Positions 4,147 through 57,004 are shown, counted from the stretch's first letter. The stretch: 64,000 nt of DNA from an uncultured virus (IMG/VR IMGVR_UViG_3300020193_000012) (IMGVR_UViG_3300020193_000012); one strand, 5' to 3'. A program made the numbers and translations. Notes: generated by a model from the sequence alone, not told the origin.

Positions 4147-4518
4147 TCAGTCCCAACTTACATTTTGAACAAGGAACCCAGGCATTACATATGTCCAAGC
4201 ACCCAACTCTTGATTTCCACCAACCTTATATTCCCACTTATACTCAAACTTATTATGACTATCCCAAGTCATATACCCTTTCTCTTTATCAAATCGTCCC
4301 TTAATGGTTAGACGATGTTTATTAGAGAAAATATTACGAGTTCTCAGTGCTCCACCTTTCTCACGGGTTTCAACGATTACACATACATCAGGATAGGTTT
4401 GAATACCTTGTTCTAGAATACAAGGAGTTTCATAACGAAATGGTCGATATGTTTTATTCTCTTGTGCAAACACAGGAGAAGAGAACAAAAGTGAAGCAAG
4501 AACAATCAGTTTTTTCAT
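4147..4518 (-). CDS. Secreted/periplasmic hypothetical protein
   Basis: Signal peptide MKKLIVLASLLFSSPVFA; ATG overlaps the stop of the RlpA-like gene. Confidence 0.75.
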   Translation of the reverse strand: MKKLIVLASLLFSSPVFAQENKTYRPFRYETPCILEQGIQTYPDVCVIVETREKGGALRTRNIFSNKHRLTIKGRFDKEKGYMTWDSHNKFEYKWEYKVGGNQELGAWTYVMPGFLVQNVSWD

Positions 4519-4835
4519 CCAATAACCCTCCAACAAACAGTAGCGTTTCCTTTTTTTACAGATTGAATATGAGCAAAAGCAGCGTAAGACAAATCTAGAT
4601 CAGCATGTGAATATGGTCCTCTGTCATTTACTCTTACAATCACTTGTTTTCCATTATCTTGATTTGTCACCCGTATTTTTGTGCCCATAGGTAAATAAGG
4701 ACTAGCTGCAGTCCAACGATAAGCATCAAACCGCTCACCATTTGCCGTAGTTTGTCCATGAAATCCATCTCCTACTCCATAGTATGTACTCGTACCGCAG
4801 GTTAATCCAGCAATAAGAAGTGCTTCAAATACCAC
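4515..4835 (-). CDS. rlpA: RlpA-like double-psi beta-barrel protein (lytic transglycosylase-like)
   Basis: Motifs STYYG..FHGQTTANGERFD, LPMGTKIRVTN, VIVRVNDRGPY, DLSYAAF. Confidence 0.85.
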   Translation of the reverse strand: MVFEALLIAGLTCGTSTYYGVGDGFHGQTTANGERFDAYRWTAASPYLPMGTKIRVTNQDNGKQVIVRVNDRGPYSHADLDLSYAAFAHIQSVKKGNATVCWRVIG

Positions 4836-5400
4836 TCTTTTTTAGTCTCCCTCTTTTCCAATTGATACCAGGACATTCTACACTTCTAATTTCAGTTTGT
4901 CCATCATTCCAAAATAACATTCCTTTATAAGACTTATTTCTTTCTATAAGTTTGTCTCTTCTTATATCATTTTTATTTTCCCATCTTTTTTTCGCAACAG
5001 AAGAATATTTTTGTTTGCTTTCATCAGTCCTACTAAGACCTTTTACTCCTTTTGATATATTACTCTTGTGTTTATTTGTCAGTTTTTTACCGCTCTGCGA
5101 TTCGCTCATTCTTTTTCTAGTTTCATCTGTTATTACTCTATTACAACCATCACCACCATCAGTTCTATTAAGAAGAATACCAGTTCCTAAATTTTTTCTT
5201 CCAAAGATAGAAATCATATAAATTTCATGTTTAAAGGCATCAAATTCTAAATCAAAATATTTAAGAACTATTGTTCTTTTTTTATCTGTTGGTTTAAAGC
5301 ACGCTTTACCTCTATCATCGTACATTCTAGATCCAGATCCTTTTACAATATAATAAGGAGTTCCGTCTTCACGCAAATAAGCGTAAGTATAGTATTTCAT
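4825..5400 (-). mobile_element. Free-standing GIY-YIG-like homing endonuclease gene with NUMOD3-type repeats (YIG motif reads YIV)
   Basis: YTYAYLREDGTPYYIVKG...R, conserved Glu (KHEI), LLNRTDGGDG, ETRKRMSES. Confidence 0.8.
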
Positions 5401-5501
5401 CTGCTTCTAATTTTGGTTGGCATTATTATTTATAATAAAATAGGGCAGATTTCTCTGCCCTTCTCTAAAAAGCGCCAACCAATTAGAGCATTATTATTTA
5501 T
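5401..5501 (-). ncRNA. Putative regulatory module: late promoter, short antisense RNA, terminator, second late promoter
   Basis: TAAATA 5495-5500; arm 5474-5490 complementary to 5' UTR 5402-5421; hairpin 5443-5460; TATAAATA 5427-5434. Confidence 0.6.
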
Positions 5502-21252: not shown

Positions 21253-22281
21253 TTATCCAAACAAAGTTGCATCAAGTTCATTAAAATCTCCACCTCCACC
21301 ACCAGAAACTGGAAGGTTTGTCAGATTAGCTCCAGATCCAACAAAACTTGTTGCAGTTACAACACCAGTAACATTAACTCCTGTCGCTCTAATAGTAACT
21401 GCAGAACCCACAATTGCTGCAGTGGCAGTTACGACACCAGTAACATTAACTCCCGTTGCTCTAATAGTAACTGCAGAACCCACAATTGCTGCAGTGGCAG
21501 TAGCAACTCCAACTGTAATGTTTGGTGTTCCGGAAAGTCCAGTAGCAGTTCCTGTTACGTTACCAACAAAACTTGTGGCAGTTACAATACCAGTAGAATT
21601 GATATTTGATGCGTATGTTGCTCCAGAAAGTGTTGATATTCCTGAGACATTTAGATTGTCAAGTTGTCCTGCTGTCGTGACAAGTGATGCAACATTATAT
21701 CCGATTGACTCGATTTCATCATTTAAGTTTGCTGGATTTGTAAGAACAAATGTAGTTCCATTAGTAGCAGTAAAATCAGTTCCAGATGCTAGTCTAATAC
21801 CATTACGATAAACTTCTAGATAACCGACAGTGTAACTTCCAGTAACTGTAAAAGTAGTCTGTCCTGCTGTTGCAGTAAATGTTGTTCTGGTATAAACATT
21901 ACCATTATTTGCATAATCTATAGGAACTGCTGGTCCTAATGAAACTGCAGAGAATGAAAGTCCAAGAGCAGGTGCAGTCGTGAAAGTAATATTACTTCCA
22001 GAAACAGAATAATCATCTGATGGATCTTGAACGACACCACCAAGATTAACAATTAGAGATTGTGCAGTTGCTGGAGAAACCGCTACAGAATTAGAAGTTA
22101 ATGCAAAAGTTTGAGTGCTACCATTAAAACTAGCACTTATATCATCTATAATTTTAATATTAGCAGTACTTGCTGCAGCAAAACTCTTCCATACTGTTCC
22201 ATCCCACTCATAGGAAAACCCCGATGTGCTATCAGTATAAATCTGACCTACTGTGGGAGAATTAGGAAAATTAAGTGCCAC
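21253..22281 (-). CDS. Tail fibre segment (342 aa)
   Basis: MALNFPNSP..GQ..YEWDGTVW N-terminus; FTATAGQTTF domain; GVVTATSF. Confidence 0.8.
   Translation of the reverse strand: MALNFPNSPTVGQIYTDSTSGFSYEWDGTVWKSFAAASTANIKIIDDISASFNGSTQTFALTSNSVAVSPATAQSLIVNLGGVVQDPSDDYSVSGSNITFTTAPALGLSFSAVSLGPAVPIDYANNGNVYTRTTFTATAGQTTFTVTGSYTVGYLEVYRNGIRLASGTDFTATNGTTFVLTNPANLNDEIESIGYNVASLVTTAGQLDNLNVSGISTLSGATYASNINSTGIVTATSFVGNVTGTATGLSGTPNITVGVATATAAIVGSAVTIRATGVNVTGVVTATAAIVGSAVTIRATGVNVTGVVTATSFVGSGANLTNLPVSGGGGGDFNELDATLFG
21353..21496. repeat. 72-bp tandem duplication (24 aa) inside the fibre gene
   Basis: Near-identical units 21353-21424 and 21425-21496. Confidence 0.9.
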
Positions 22282-22307
22282 TTCTCTTTATTCGCTCTTT
22301 TGTTTAT

Positions 22308-22478
22308 TTATTCAGTTACAATAATGCCACCAAAAGATAACTCCTTGGTGGCATCTGCTTTTCTTGTATATTTTTTACGATCTTCAAAAACTGTTGTCCA
22401 ACGATTTTCGCTATGGTAATAAATGATATTTTCTTGACCTTGAATTTGTTGCGACTTCTCTATATGGTATTTTGCCAT
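22308..22478 (-). CDS. Small hypothetical protein (56 aa), not in the ORF track
   Basis: MAKYHIEKSQQIQGQENIIYY...GGIIVTE; AAGG RBS. Confidence 0.65.
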   Translation of the reverse strand: MAKYHIEKSQQIQGQENIIYYHSENRWTTVFEDRKKYTRKADATKELSFGGIIVTE

Positions 22479-22491
22479 GTTAATACCTTTT

Positions 22492-23046
22492 TTAAGTATT
22501 TATCGCTTGATGGTCTGGAAGTTTAGGAAGTAAATCAAAAGAGATGATTGTTCGTTGTTTTCTTGATTGATTGGGATGAACAAAGTGTAGTGTATAAGAA
22601 GGAACGATAAACAATGTACCCTCTTGTACGTTTTGAGGATATGCAAGAGTTGTTGTATCAGTTCTTGGGTCTTGCCAAGGTGCGACAAAACAAGTTGGAG
22701 TGTGATGTTTTGGGTCATACTCCACATAAAGAACACCAGAAAATCCCCAACTTTTATGGTTGTGAACTGTCTGATGGTCTCCTTGCTTATACCTTACTGC
22801 CCAACAATCAGTCATACTACAAGTAACTTCTGCTTCCTGACAAAACTCAAATAATTGAGGTTTGATGAGGTCTTGAAAGTAATGCAGATATGACTTTTTG
22901 TTAGTTTGTCTATCAGTCTCAAAAGTTTGCAGAGTGGTTCTTACAAACTTTTGAGAGTTGATACGATTTAAGATGCCCTTTTTCTTAAACGACCAATCAT
23001 CAACTTGATACTGATAAGAAGGGTATTCAAAGAGTGGTGCTTTCAT
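22492..23046 (-). CDS. 2OG-Fe(II) oxygenase-fold protein (HxH type)
   Basis: W..RY..GDHQTVHNH, SGVLY, EGTLFIVPS..LHFV, R.IISF. Confidence 0.8.
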   Translation of the reverse strand: MKAPLFEYPSYQYQVDDWSFKKKGILNRINSQKFVRTTLQTFETDRQTNKKSYLHYFQDLIKPQLFEFCQEAEVTCSMTDCWAVRYKQGDHQTVHNHKSWGFSGVLYVEYDPKHHTPTCFVAPWQDPRTDTTTLAYPQNVQEGTLFIVPSYTLHFVHPNQSRKQRTIISFDLLPKLPDHQAINT

Positions 23047-23656
23047 ATTTTTTTACCTGATAACCTTTATGTTGTTTCCAAATACCATTAGCAACTTCAC
23101 ACATATGTCTGTTATTGAGATTATTGATGCGACAATACTCTGCCATATTGTTGGTTGTTTCTATTATACCAGAGGGTGTTATTATTTCATACATCCATTT
23201 ATTACATCTGGTATTTCTTCGTCTGTCAATTTCATCTTTGGTCCAAACTTTTCCCTTCATTCTGATACTCATTTTTTTCTTCACTTCTTCACTTAACAAC
23301 CTTCCTTTACCAGCAACACTTAATTTTTTTCTAATTTCTGGTGTCATACCTTCCCGTGTCTTTTGTGATATTAATCTTCTTATCTCTTCTGTATGTTTGT
23401 GTCCAGACACTCCATCACCGCCATCAGTTCTATTCCAGAGTATTCCAGTCCCCAAATCTTTTCTTCCATATACAGAAATCATATAAATTTCGTGTTTAAA
23501 TGCGTCTTCTTCCGTGAGTTTATCTTTGAGGATAAGTATTCTATCTTTTGGTGGAACGCAAGTGTTGTAATGAGTTGAATATGCTCTGTTATCCTTCCCC
23601 TTTCCAATATAATAAGGAGTTCCGTCTTCACGTAGGTAAGCGTAAGTGTAATACAT
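23027..23656 (-). mobile_element. Free-standing GIY-YIG-like homing endonuclease gene with NUMOD3 repeats and C-terminal HTH-like domain
   Basis: YTYAYLREDGTPYYIGKG..RA, KHEI, LWNRTDGGDG, HTEEIRRLIS. Confidence 0.85.
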
Positions 23657-23752
23657 TTCTACTCTAACTTGGTCGCAAAAGTATTTATACTAAAAAGGAG
23701 GGACTTTCACCCTCCTCCTGAAAAGTGCGACCAAATCAGGTATTAGTATTTA
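23657..23752 (-). ncRNA. Putative regulatory module: late promoter, short antisense RNA, terminator, second late promoter
   Basis: TAAATA 23747-23752; arm 23726-23742 complementary to 5' UTR 23660-23677; hairpin plus T5 at 23692-23718; TATAAATA 23682-23689. Confidence 0.65.
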
Positions 23753-24475
23753 TCTAGCACGGTCCCAAGCACAGTGAGCTCTCTGTCCGTCTTGCAAGCA
23801 ATAATGAAAAAAGATTTGATGGTAGTACAACTGTTCCTGATTTTTACCAAACAGTTTCTTACCCTTCTTCATACCAGGCATCGGGTCACGCCAGTGTGGT
23901 CTTTCACAACCTTTATAAATCATTCCATCACCAGGTTTTAGGATTACAGAACGGTTTTCGCCAGGAACGAGAATTTGGGTTTTCTTCTTATCTGCGTAAG
24001 TATCTGGGGTCTTAATCCAGATAGCCCAATTAGCATCCTCACCAGTCAGATTGGTGCTGACGTGAACGGTCACAGAAATCTCACAAGCATCACGGTCTGC
24101 GTGTTTTGTTAGTGCCTGCCCTGGAAAATAGTAGCGATCATAATAATAAGTATTATAAAGTTTACGACCTAGTGCCTCTTCTAGTTTTGTACGAATACCA
24201 CAGTGAATCTGACGGTATTGTGGGTGCCAATAACGAGCAAGTGAACCTTCAACCTGCTGTTCTACTGGTGTATGAGTAAACTGGTCCATCTTTTTACCCC
24301 ACCAGTTCATCTGTCCACGCTCTTCTGGAAGTGGGTGGTAGAGTTCTTCCGGATCCCATAAGTCTTTAATGACCAGGTATCCATTCTTTTCAAAGGATTC
24401 GTTGTGAGTCCAGGCAGTACCAGTGTTCTGCCGCTCTTGCATCATCAGTTGCAGTTCTGTCATTTGTTCTGCCAT
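23750..24475 (-). CDS. 2OG-Fe(II) oxygenase
   Basis: KHADRDACEISVT, PGDGMIYKG..RPHWR, QIFFHY. Confidence 0.85.
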   Translation of the reverse strand: MAEQMTELQLMMQERQNTGTAWTHNESFEKNGYLVIKDLWDPEELYHPLPEERGQMNWWGKKMDQFTHTPVEQQVEGSLARYWHPQYRQIHCGIRTKLEEALGRKLYNTYYYDRYYFPGQALTKHADRDACEISVTVHVSTNLTGEDANWAIWIKTPDTYADKKKTQILVPGENRSVILKPGDGMIYKGCERPHWRDPMPGMKKGKKLFGKNQEQLYYHQIFFHYCLQDGQRAHCAWDRAR

Positions 24476-24485
24476 AATCTATGCC

Positions 24486-25112
24486 TCACTTCCAGCGTGG
24501 GCCAACAACCCAAGATACTAATGAGCGTCGTGTTCCTTTAGTTACCTTAAGAACTCTATGTTGTGCTCTGGAGTCAAATACAATTACTGTTCCACGCTTT
24601 CTAGGAACAATATAACTATTATTTGCTTCATCTAATATCTGTAGGTTCCCGCCTTCATAATCATCGGGGTCTGAAAGTTGCACGACTACACTCAATTTTC
24701 GGATCAATTCACAGTTTTCATTAATAAAGTCCTGTGCAATCTCTTGACCATTACCACGATTACCGACTGATACTGGTTTATAATGAGTTGCTAAACCTGC
24801 ATCATTATGCCAGGAATAAAACTGTCCTTCTGTGTATTTTGTAAATTGAATACTTTCTCCATCAATATTACGAATATCATAAAGAAAGTTTTCACGATTT
24901 GCTCTTTCAATATAATGCCAAAGAAAACCACCAATCCAGTGTGTGGTGGGAATCCAAGCATTTTGTGAGTTTCTTTTATCACGATTGAGTGCGTCGCCGT
25001 GTAAACGACTGTCCGCCATTTGCTCATCAAAATGTTCTACTGCGTCTCTTTCTAGAATATCTACGATGTCTTCAGGAATTTGTGCATAATACCATACAGA
25101 TTGTAGCGCCAA
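24486..25112 (-). CDS. 2OG-Fe(II) oxygenase, prolyl-4-hydroxylase-like (TTG start)
   Basis: YSWHND, RKLSVVVQLS, YEGGNL, FDSRAQHRV, RRSLVSW; AAGGAG RBS at 25121-25126. Confidence 0.9.
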   Translation of the reverse strand: MALQSVWYYAQIPEDIVDILERDAVEHFDEQMADSRLHGDALNRDKRNSQNAWIPTTHWIGGFLWHYIERANRENFLYDIRNIDGESIQFTKYTEGQFYSWHNDAGLATHYKPVSVGNRGNGQEIAQDFINENCELIRKLSVVVQLSDPDDYEGGNLQILDEANNSYIVPRKRGTVIVFDSRAQHRVLKVTKGTRRSLVSWVVGPRWK

Positions 25113-25143
25113 AGGTCAATCTCCTTATAATGTGCTCAACGAT

Positions 25144-25172
25144 ATTATATAGAAACTTTTTAGGAATGTCAA
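25144..25172 (-). promoter_or_regulatory. Consensus sigma70 promoter overlapping the endonuclease stop codon
   Basis: TTGACA-N17-TATAAT. Confidence 0.85.
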
Positions 25173-25867
25173 TTTACAAGTTCTACTTTTACGATATCTT
25201 TATGAGGAATACCCTTGTTTTTAACACGATAAACGCAACTATCAGAGTATGGATTATTTCTACACCACTCCATAATGCTATTAACAATTAACTCTCTTCC
25301 ATCATCAAAAATGATTTTATGAGGTTTTGCTTTTTTCATATGCCCCATACTCATTTTTTGTTTTGCTTCTTCAGTATGCTTAAATCCCTTCTTTGCTTCA
25401 CTTACCTTTCTTTTATGTTCTTCAGTGCAAGTTCTGCCCTTTCTAGCAGCACTTTGTTTTGCTCTGGTTTCATCACTTGCTTTTTTACCTCTATTACTTG
25501 CAGCAATCTTATCATAAACCCATTGAGGTCTCTGCTTACCAAGATTTGCTTGACGAAGTTTTTCCCTTGTTTCTGCACTTCTTATTGCACCCGAAGCACC
25601 ATCACCACCATCACTTCTATTTCTTAAAATACCAGCACCTGAATCAATTCTACCAAACATTAAAATATAAAGTTTCTCTAACAGGAATGCTTCATCTTCT
25701 GTTAAATCTGCTTTGAGTATTCTAATTCTTGATTTATCTCTTGGTGGTTTAACTTCTTTTGGTCCCTTGTTATATGCTCTTTTACCAGAACCCTTTCCAA
25801 TATAATAAGGACTATGATTTTCACGGAGGTAAGAATAGATGTAGTATTGGTTCTTACCGGAAGCCAT
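25169..25867 (-). mobile_element. Free-standing GIY-YIG-like homing endonuclease gene with several NUMOD3 repeats
   Basis: YIYSYLRENHSPYYIGKGSGKRA, LRNRSDGGDG, repeats ETREKL/ETRAKQS/EHKRKVS/EAKQKMS. Confidence 0.85.
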
Positions 25868-25890
25868 ATGTGAATAATGTATTCGGTGTT

Positions 25891-25919
25891 ATTATATATG
25901 ATGTTGCGAATATTGTCAA
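25891..25919 (-). promoter_or_regulatory. Consensus sigma70 promoter
   Basis: TTGACA-N17-TATAAT. Confidence 0.85.
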
Positions 25920-25932
25920 CTTTTGATAGAAT
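25904..25932 (+). promoter_or_regulatory. Divergent sigma70-like promoter for the plus-strand sulfotransferase
   Basis: TTGCGA-N17-TAGAAT, 21 nt before the ATG at 25954. Confidence 0.55.
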
Positions 25933-25953
25933 AAAGTATCATCAAAAAATAAT

Positions 25954-26775
25954 ATGAAAAAATATTTTTTTCTTGCGGGATTACCTCGCTCTGGAAACAC
26001 TTTGTTATCAACGATTTTGAATCAGAATCCCGATATTAAAGTTTCTGCTAATAGTTTTTTGTGCGACTATATGTATCAAACTGCTATGTTTTTTCATAGC
26101 GAAAAGTATTGTAATTTTCCGGATAAAAAATCTTTATCAAATCTTATCACATCTTCTTTCGATTCTTATTATAAAGAATGGGACGCAAAATATATTATTG
26201 ATAGAGGTCCATGGGGAACTTTTATTAATTTAAATCTTTTAAAAAACTATTTGAATAATGAAATTAAAATAATTTGTACTGTAAGAGATATTGTTGAAAT
26301 TATTGCTTCTTTTATAAAAATATGTCCAAATAAATTAAAAAATCAATTAAATTATGAAATACAATCTGGAGTAAGATTTTTTGAAACTTATAAAGAAGAA
26401 GTAGAACTATTTTGCGAAGTAATAACAAACCCAAATGGACAGCTAGAAGAATCTTTATTTTCCTTACAAAATTTATTAAAAAAAGATAACAGAAAATATT
26501 TATATCTCATAGAATATAAAGATCTCATAAAAAATCCAGAAAAAACTATTGATGAAGTATATGACTTTTTAAACATAAAAAAATACAATCATAATTTTCA
26601 AAATATAAATCAATTCTGTGAAAATAAAGTATACTATGATGATTCAATTTTTGGTGGAGATTTGCACAAAATTGATAAAATAATAAAATTTCCAGATTAT
26701 AGCGTGAAAGATGTTTTACCCGATTATCTTATTGAAAGATATTCAAACAGAGAGTTTTGGAGACACTTTTTATGA
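25954..26775 (+). CDS. Sulfotransferase family protein 3 (only credible plus-strand gene)
   Basis: GLPRSGNTLL, IIDRGPWGT, RDIVEIIAS. Confidence 0.85.
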   Translation: MKKYFFLAGLPRSGNTLLSTILNQNPDIKVSANSFLCDYMYQTAMFFHSEKYCNFPDKKSLSNLITSSFDSYYKEWDAKYIIDRGPWGTFINLNLLKNYLNNEIKIICTVRDIVEIIASFIKICPNKLKNQLNYEIQSGVRFFETYKEEVELFCEVITNPNGQLEESLFSLQNLLKKDNRKYLYLIEYKDLIKNPEKTIDEVYDFLNIKKYNHNFQNINQFCENKVYYDDSIFGGDLHKIDKIIKFPDYSVKDVLPDYLIERYSNREFWRHFL

Positions 26776-56535: not shown

Positions 56536-56608
56536 AGCCCCCAGACGGAATTGAACCGTCCTCTCCGCTTTACAAGAGCGGTACATCGCCACTTAATGCT
56601 TTAGAGGC
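56536..56608 (-). tRNA. trnT: tRNA-Thr (anticodon TGT)
   Basis: Cloverleaf; anticodon arm CCGCT-CTTGTAA-AGCGG; T arm GACGG-TTCAATT-CCGTC; CCA not encoded. Confidence 0.9.
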
Positions 56609-56929: not shown

Positions 56930-57004
56930 TAGGCGGAGCGGGATTCGAACCCGCACTGTACAAATTTTAAGTTTGGTGTCTCCTGCCAGTTGGACTACCC
57001 GCCC
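56930..57004 (-). tRNA. trnL: tRNA-Leu (anticodon TAA), short variable loop
   Basis: Anticodon loop CTTAAAA; T arm GCGGG-TTCGAAT-CCCGC; discriminator A. Confidence 0.85.

Follow-up and report, generated by a model that had tools for sequence, protein, structure and literature searches.

Homing endonucleases are selfish nucleases, which a phage must hold almost silent. In type I toxin-antitoxin systems such as IstR-1/tisB, OhsC/shoB and OrzO/zorO, a harmful gene has for a neighbor a short RNA gene equipped with a promoter and a terminator of its own; the RNA pairs over about 17-20 nt with the 5' untranslated region of the toxin mRNA and prevents its translation.

For the T-even phages, section 12 of Edgell, Gibb and Belfort 2010 (PMC2988022) describes hairpins that sequester the ribosome-binding site (RBS) and enclose a nested late promoter at I-TevI, I-TevII, I-TevIII, segB and Aeh1 mobE, and the same review places such hairpins at the T4 genes soc, e, 39, 25 and 26. 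In cyanophage-like metagenomic DNA, Dassa et al. 2009 (PMC2677866) described free-standing endonucleases lying in 'fractured genes'; according to section 14 of that paper, hairpins with two complementary motifs stand ahead of the endonuclease start codon in 15 of the 16 5' regions, ten of them with TATAAATA. According to these sections, the core mechanism, a mask over the ribosome site with a nested late promoter, is already known, and it was noted for cyanophage-like endonucleases in 2009. A different kind of RNA, CfrI of cyanophage S-PM2, is an antisense RNA of about 225 nt that lies on the opposite strand and overlaps an endonuclease gene and psbA (Millard et al. 2010, PMC2984593 section 14).

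We analyzed a 64,000-nucleotide stretch of DNA from an uncultured virus (IMG/VR IMGVR_UViG_3300020193_000012), referred to below as the window. By protein similarity its nearest isolates are the T4-like Synechococcus phages S-SM2 and Bellamy; a megablast search of the phage collection returned no near-identical DNA for positions 22000-26000. The window has a G+C content of 35-40%, carries nearly all of its genes on the minus strand, and encodes tail-fibre and baseplate proteins, several 2OG-Fe(II) oxygenases and one carbamoyltransferase. Two tRNA genes on the minus strand (56536-56608 and 56930-57004; RF00005, 46 and 51.7 bits) are the only matches to Rfam release 15 at gathering score in the whole window.

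The late-promoter core shows an extreme strand bias in this DNA. All 24 copies of ATAAATA lie on the minus strand, for a total equal to the chance expectation, and TAAATA has 45 copies there versus 19 on the plus strand. The minus-strand copies of TAAATA mostly lie 15-33 nt upstream of structural-gene start codons, in the form N[A/C]TAAATA. The cyanomyovirus late-promoter consensus given in section 10 of PMC2984593 is NATAAATA, and the putative late promoters of structural genes in the window agree with it. Several structural genes are also preceded by a CTAAATA variant (29957, 13111 and 43676 are examples), which the consensus as published in that section does not cover.

Three endonuclease genes are of concern here:

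4825-5400, minus strand: endonuclease gene 1, 191 aa, family of gene 2
23027-23656, minus strand: endonuclease gene 2, 209 aa, putatively of the Seg-like GIY-YIG type, carrying a NUMOD3 motif (PHROG 314, 1.6e-17; phrog_15526, 2.6e-30; Pfam NUMOD3)
25169-25867, minus strand: endonuclease gene 3, 232 aa, family of gene 2, without the module described below

The three are paralogues, 41% identical. PHROG 314, 'homing endonuclease', matches them all (5.4e-13 and 4e-20 besides the value listed for gene 2), and Pfam NUMOD3 matches gene 3 as well as gene 2. At E <= 0.001, none of the three window endonucleases matches the Pfam GIY-YIG domain; the relative L093 matches PF01541.

Upstream of gene 2, and entirely on its strand, lies a compact set of elements that we call module 2 (23754-23654):

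23754-23747, minus strand: late-promoter box P1, GATAAATA, overlapping the TAA stop codon (23752-23750) of the upstream gene 23750-24475
23742-23726, minus strand: 5' arm (anti-leader), UACCUGAUUUGGUCGCA, 17 nt, pairing with 23677-23660 in the minimum free energy (MFE) fold
23740-23717, minus strand: hairpin SL1, CCUGA (23740-23736) paired with UCAGG (23721-23717) in the fold of the P1-to-terminator RNA
23716-23692, minus strand: intrinsic-terminator-like hairpin GGAGGG/CCCUCC followed by U5, with a 7-bp G+C-rich stem and a 7-nt loop
23689-23682, minus strand: late promoter P2, assigned by sequence, TATAAATA, between the arms
23677-23660, minus strand: 3' arm, which is the leader, UGCGACCAAGUUAGAGUA, 18 nt, covering the AGAG ribosome-site region and stopping 3 nt short of the AUG
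23656-23654, minus strand: ATG of endonuclease gene 2, assigned by sequence

Every element that the original prediction had listed for 23657..23752 is found in place on the minus strand. RNAfold, applied to 23765-23645, also reproduces the pairing claimed for the arms: the long-range stem has 17 pairs, nine of them contiguous Watson-Crick, with two G-U pairs and one bulged A; it encloses the terminator hairpin and spans UUAGAGUA, so that 3 nt are left before the AUG. The fold is predicted at -39.9 kcal/mol (z = -5.18) and none of 200 shuffles is as stable. When the P1-to-terminator RNA is folded by itself, the loop of SL1 displays the core of the anti-leader.

A second set of elements precedes gene 1 (module 1, 5502-5398):

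5502-5495, minus strand: P1, assigned by sequence, AATAAATA
5489-5474, minus strand: 5' arm
5460-5434, minus strand: terminator
5434-5427, minus strand: P2, assigned by sequence, TATAAATA
5421-5403, minus strand: 3' arm, covering the ribosome-site/start region
5400-5398, minus strand: ATG of endonuclease gene 1

The two modules are alike in order and spacing (P1 and P2 are 68 nt apart in module 1 and 65 nt apart in module 2) and unlike in their arm, leader and hairpin sequences, as expected of the diverged copies that they had been taken for. Module 1 folds like module 2 (z = -4.60, 0/200 shuffles), and in both cases the long-range stem is the MFE structure of the read-through RNA. The predicted probability that the region from -12 to +3 is unpaired is 0.89 in the late mRNA versus 0.39 in the read-through RNA for module 1, and 0.55 versus 0.40 for module 2, for which the predicted gain in accessibility is modest. 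The arm of module 1 (5474-5489) and the leader of module 2 (23660-23677), its ribosome-site region included, form a predicted duplex of -18.6 kcal/mol, as compared with -24.6 kcal/mol for the cognate pair; the reverse combination is predicted at -11.1 kcal/mol. If small RNAs exist, cross-talk between the two modules would thus be one-way.

A covariance model (R1), built from 41 modules with both window copies in its seed, finds modules 1 and 2 and nothing else in the 64-kb window at E <= 1. No module lies upstream of gene 3, in line with the earlier claim that the third endonuclease lacks one. An Rfam search of 23600-23800 at E <= 10 gave chance-level matches only, the best at 16.6 bits against a gathering score of 90, and no existing Rfam family matches module 2. 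Gene 3 has different surroundings: its upstream neighbor (25954-26775) is divergent, on the opposite strand, and a 12/12 TTGACA-17-TATAAT box of the sigma-70 type lies upstream at 25919-25891. The complement of its leader is found nowhere else in the window, allowing up to 3 mismatches in 22 nt. A second perfect TTGACA-17-TATAAT box is present at 25172-25144 on the minus strand, so that the two boxes flank gene 3; both have a common CACATTAT some 10 nt on. Apparently the 2OG-Fe(II) oxygenase gene downstream acquired, along with the insertion of gene 3, an early promoter that is either a duplicate or a replacement.

We collected homologues in two ways. Scanning IMG/VR with the endonuclease alignment yielded 80 loci of 604 relatives; together with the three window genes these make 83 upstream regions, 66 of them unique, which fall into 41 class A modules (including the two window copies), 15 class B modules and 10 regions with none. 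Many endonucleases of the same family, namely those behind the last 10 of the 66 regions plus gene 3, are thus without any module. A second scan, independent of both the endonuclease and P1, used a 16-nt terminator tail plus P2 as probe and gave 109 unique sites, at 60 of which the arm:leader duplex is strong (-18 kcal/mol or lower). The ORFs behind these 60 modules have several N-terminal types, comprising sub-types of PHROG 314, with a Pfam GIY-YIG match for one of them, as well as the HNH-type PHROG 655, and identical arm types stand before different endonuclease families. By these matches, the module precedes at least two families, GIY-YIG-type and HNH-type. This variety of N-terminal types, together with the occurrence of one arm sequence before different types, indicates that the module is portable and is no appendage of a single enzyme.

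Model R1 finds modules in 15 of the 20 records searched. Cultured phages are among the carriers, with six modules in S-SRM01, two in B23, one in S-B68 and a weak one in S-N03; complete metagenomic genomes have 3-5 copies each. On one IMG/VR contig with four modules, P1 is lost from L100, whose arm:leader duplex is weakened to -14.8 kcal/mol, and the other three (L101-L103) are intact. This is a single case of joint decay of P1 and pairing.

The class B modules (L002, L012, L014, L020, L024, L025, L040, L048, L051-L054, L072, L075 and L076) sit about 110 nt upstream of the endonuclease ATG. They consist of a conserved nested hairpin with an outer stem of the GGGC...GCCC kind, an inner CAAC/GUUG stem, a conserved GUAAGU bulge and a U run at the end. 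Complementarity of the 5' inner strand and the apical loop to the leader extends as far as the AUG; pairing in cis would form a pseudoknot. Cognate duplexes average -24.7 kcal/mol versus -16.6 kcal/mol for non-cognate ones. A TAAATA box is found at the place of P1 in 4 of the 15, and an own promoter is therefore not universal.

Several lines of comparison show that the arm:leader pairing is under strong selection. The 41 class A modules were aligned by plain MAFFT (A4), with no fitting to any structure, and RNAalifold recovers from this alignment, unaided, the long-range core helix and the terminator. Paired cells amount to 93.9% versus 72.6% in shuffled alignments, and the covariation score is 0.703 versus 0.298 (0/500 shuffles as high), with slid controls at 0.12-0.17. 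The core helix of 7 bp is 98.6% paired and all seven of its pairs change on both sides; the terminator stem (helix 3) also covaries, being 88.6% paired in A4 and 94.6% in A7. A7, a model-fitted alignment of 103 matches from 100 sources, which leans to the structure by construction, gives 96.5% versus 69.7% paired cells and a covariation of 0.780 versus 0.261. Free of any alignment, the 94 pooled unique modules have a mean arm:leader energy of -22.4 kcal/mol for cognate combinations (sd 1.8) versus -11.1 kcal/mol for non-cognate ones (sd 4.3), and none of 2000 permutations is as low. The compensatory changes between the two window copies had been read in the original prediction as a sign of selected RNA pairing; these large homologue sets bear that argument out, and complementarity is retained at the homologous loci.

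The duplex is 14-22 bp long across modules and takes in about the first 18 nt of the endonuclease leader; its cover of the ribosome-site region, conserved in 94 modules, stops a few bases short of the AUG. The registers of its strands are narrow: the 5' arm begins at the fifth nucleotide past P1 in 66 of the 94 modules, and the 3' arm at the fourth to sixth nucleotide past P2 in 79. Since these start registers are fixed, complementarity is limited to what P1 and P2 would transcribe.

It had further been suggested that each RNA is specific to its own nuclease. This stands in part: the 41 class A modules form 18 specificity groups, but the module 1 arm is predicted to pair well with the module 2 leader (above) and the same arm types serve different families. 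As identical arms precede different endonuclease families, specificity is a property of the leader, not of the enzyme. Modules residing together are not detectably more distinct than random pairs: among 90 ordered pairs, drawn from 37 modules in 13 records only, one reaches -18 kcal/mol or lower versus 3.1 expected (P = 0.23), and that single pair is the window's own.

The box that we call P1 is as regular as the arms. TAAATA lies 63-76 nt upstream of P2 in all 60 strong-arm modules, which were chosen without reference to P1, versus 1 of 47 sites without arms, and the bases on either side of the box vary among modules. Its most frequent forms are GATAAATA (32 modules), ACTAAATA (20) and CATAAATA (14), besides others; P2 is TATAAATA in 90 of 94. 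An 8-mer of the P1 type precedes five structural genes of the window. Matching both these late promoters and the consensus NATAAATA as published, P1 is a candidate promoter, and the succession of promoter, arm, terminator and promoter proposed originally appears a reasonable reading of the module. A role of P1 as a mere stop codon was considered and rejected: the ORF upstream of module 1 stops 15 nt earlier, and cassettes inserted backward among their neighbors (below) keep P1.

The 3' strand of SL1 is out of register in both the MAFFT and the model alignments; we therefore compared cognate with non-cognate strands instead of counting columns. Over the 94 modules the SL1 strands pair at -6.7 kcal/mol when cognate versus -3.7 kcal/mol when not (0/2000 permutations as low), with a mean z of -2.0 relative to shuffles. 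The RNAs predicted to run from P1 to the terminator measure 50 nt in module 2 and 53 nt in module 1, with two hairpins each, and their predicted net cofold gain with the late mRNA, after opening of SL1, is -15.1 and -14.8 kcal/mol, respectively. Because P1, SL1 and terminator together look like a small RNA gene, an anti-leader RNA of about 50 nt is likely.

The boundaries of the cassette can be drawn from related phages. The gene upstream of module 2 is 74.5% similar in protein to its S-SM2 counterpart and 73.5% to that of Bellamy. In both phages the homologues of the module 2 flanking genes share an ATGA overlap, and neither an endonuclease nor TAAATA is present there. Similarity of the window to these phages ends at the 'GAT' of GATAAATA and picks up again at the ATG of the downstream gene. 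Because the genes overlap there without TAAATA, P1 is the first element of the insert and came with the cassette; the same comparison rules out, for module 2, that P1 was a promoter already present at the insertion site. At the other end, the last 20 nt of gene 2 (23027-23046) run into the 5' end of the 2OG-Fe(II) oxygenase gene that follows (22492-23046), and the 3' end of gene 1 overlaps its downstream gene (4515-4835) by 11 nt (4825-4835). The insert has swapped the ATGA translational coupling of the module 2 flanks for coupling to the endonuclease frame. The genes flanking module 1 are not adjacent in S-SM2 or Bellamy. The module travels with the cassette and gives the interrupted upstream gene a stop codon and a terminator back.

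The orientation of upstream genes bears on the source of incoming transcription. With 300-nt flanks it was unclear for 56 of 104 modules, and the analysis was redone with long flanks (at least 700 nt). A co-oriented gene precedes both window modules and 23 of the 37 modules with such flanks. Six modules were scored as 'opposite'. For L050, L069 (counted twice) and L010 this score depends on ORFs that lack annotation and are probably shadow ORFs, and a 307-aa ORF at L050 is co-oriented. The solid opposite-strand cases from this call are L043 and L074 only. L043 (identical to L046), L074 and L047, the last at the same site, carry a full module although the genes on both sides are encoded on the opposite strand. 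Relative to L043/L074, L047 has four pair changes, each of them compensated, and the closest relative of the group is module 2 of the window. In these backward cassettes, antisense transcription from further upstream may be a source of the arm.

The following mechanism would account for these elements. The arm:leader duplex would block translation initiation at the ribosome-site region, and we consider it very likely that pairing masks translation. Any RNA with both arms, whether read-through or a P1 transcript passing the terminator, would be masked in cis, like T4 I-TevI, segB and Aeh1 mobE; such a cis mask is likely to operate. The internal terminator would halt most incoming transcription. 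P2 transcription would start at the first bases of the 3' arm, for which reason the late mRNA would lack the mask and be translatable. P1, for its part, is placed for transcription from the first bases of the 5' arm, and P1, SL1 and terminator together would most likely release an RNA of 50-55 nt, a step less certain than those in cis; that the small RNA is made we hold to be rather probable. Once released, it could re-mask P2 mRNA in trans, so that less nuclease would be made late, and for regulation in trans we put the chances slightly short of even. The complete proposal, that P1, SL1 and terminator constitute a genuine late gene whose product is a 50-55-nt RNA and that the cassettes thus carry an antitoxin-like trans repressor of their own mRNA, is a tentative one, to which we give a little less credence still.

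A T4-type cis mask shares this anatomy, and the sequence alone would fit a cis mask as well as a trans antisense RNA. Our leading reading is dual, with a cis mask and a P1-derived small RNA in a mobile homing-endonuclease cassette of a T4-like cyanophage, and we see it as evenly poised between right and wrong. We favor it because P1, SL1, the fixed register, the cassette boundary and the backward cassettes are not needed for a cis mask. The most serious rival is a T4-type mask working in cis only, where the terminator is an extra insulator and the RNA from P1 a by-product, or P1 itself a supply of stop codons or a relic of the cassette. This is a substantial possibility, if a minority one: I-TevI and Aeh1 mobE have been shown to use such a mask, segB and I-TevII/III are proposed to do so (PMC2988022 section 12), and one was proposed earlier for cyanophage-like metagenomic endonucleases (PMC2677866 section 14). 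It agrees with the co-oriented genes ahead of both window modules and 23 of the 37 modules with enough flank, with the absence of a co-oriented upstream gene at the module-less gene 3, with class B being mostly devoid of P1, and with the lack of any sign of selection for orthogonality. However, it leaves unexplained why TAAATA, at a constant spacing from the arm, does not vary (60/60 versus 1/47) amid variable flanking bases, why the P1 of module 1 stands 15 nt past the upstream stop codon, why SL1 covaries, and why complete modules with compensated arms persist in opposite-strand surroundings. The trans part of the dual reading is itself weakened by the absence of excess orthogonality, which a trans system might call for, among co-resident modules (P = 0.23), by the window's own pair being the strongest cross-pairing within a record (-18.6 kcal/mol), by the scarcity of P1 in class B, by the absence of any module from some family members, and by the small accessibility gain predicted for module 2. 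If P1 and P2 fire simultaneously, repressor and target would be made at once, to no evident purpose, which also speaks against the dual reading.

At the other extreme, the P1 RNA could be the sole regulator, one RNA per nuclease, with cis pairing made irrelevant by an efficient terminator. The resemblance of P1, SL1 and terminator to a small RNA gene, the backward cassettes with no other visible source of the arm, and the 18 specificity groups among 41 modules all point that way. We nevertheless judge it improbable, as read-through RNA necessarily has both arms and folds into the long-range stem as its MFE structure, the module 1 arm is predicted to bind the module 2 leader, the same arm types serve different endonuclease families, and class B usually lacks P1. 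More improbable still is that the duplex, whether formed in cis or in trans, serves chiefly to direct RNA processing or decay, with a double-strand-specific RNase removing the endonuclease mRNA or splitting it off from the upstream messages. For such RNases, 17 bp with a bulge is short. The narrow range of the duplex (14-22 bp; -22.4 kcal/mol, sd 1.8) would suit a substrate of this kind, and section 11 of PMC2988022 describes RNase processing of seg/mob transcripts in T4-type phages; however, the duplex always covers the ribosome-site region just before the AUG, as a translational mask needs.

The element is real, strongly selected and widespread, with its small RNA as a candidate. It indicates that cyanophages of marine and fresh waters have a more elaborate form of the T4-type mask, one that is self-contained and portable. 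If the small RNA is made, it would represent a new class of phage regulatory RNA and the first RNA regulator dedicated to homing endonucleases. The modules would then amount to a natural collection of about twenty or more arm/leader pairs, distinct from one another, that move as a unit between unrelated nuclease genes, and such short, distinct repressor/leader pairs would be potential orthogonal translational switches. The module is testable now, since cultured phages (S-SRM01, B23, S-B68) carry it. In the full-text literature searched, with subscription journals mostly outside, no description of a P1-driven anti-leader RNA turned up, and the sole cyanophage endonuclease-linked RNA found was CfrI.

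Like CfrI, as presented in section 14 of PMC2984593, the candidate RNA is tied to a homing-endonuclease gene of a T4-like cyanophage; unlike it, it lies upstream on the same strand and pairs through an inverted repeat. Compared with the type I antitoxins, the target here is a site-specific nuclease instead of a small membrane toxin, the candidate RNA gene is in tandem on the same strand, and the setting is a lytic phage with late promoters, the RNA being predicted from sequence. Judging from section 14 of Dassa et al., their element and ours are very probably identical or sisters: its endonucleases overlap the downstream gene by their 3' ends, as do ours by 20 and 11 nt. That section reads the hairpin as a translational one in cis only, with no upstream promoter box, internal terminator or small RNA mentioned there. 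With the T-even mask, as described in section 12 of PMC2988022, the module shares an upstream arm that pairs with the endonuclease ribosome site, a late promoter between the arms, late transcripts without the inhibitory arm, and the nature of the controlled genes, which are selfish nucleases within polycistronic units. The invariant P1, SL1 and the internal terminator, features that the passages of that section do not mention, go beyond this known cis mask: here a whole intrinsic terminator occupies the loop of the long-range stem, a late-promoter box stands at a fixed spacing before a 5' arm that forms its own hairpin, and the whole is a self-contained unit common to several endonuclease families.
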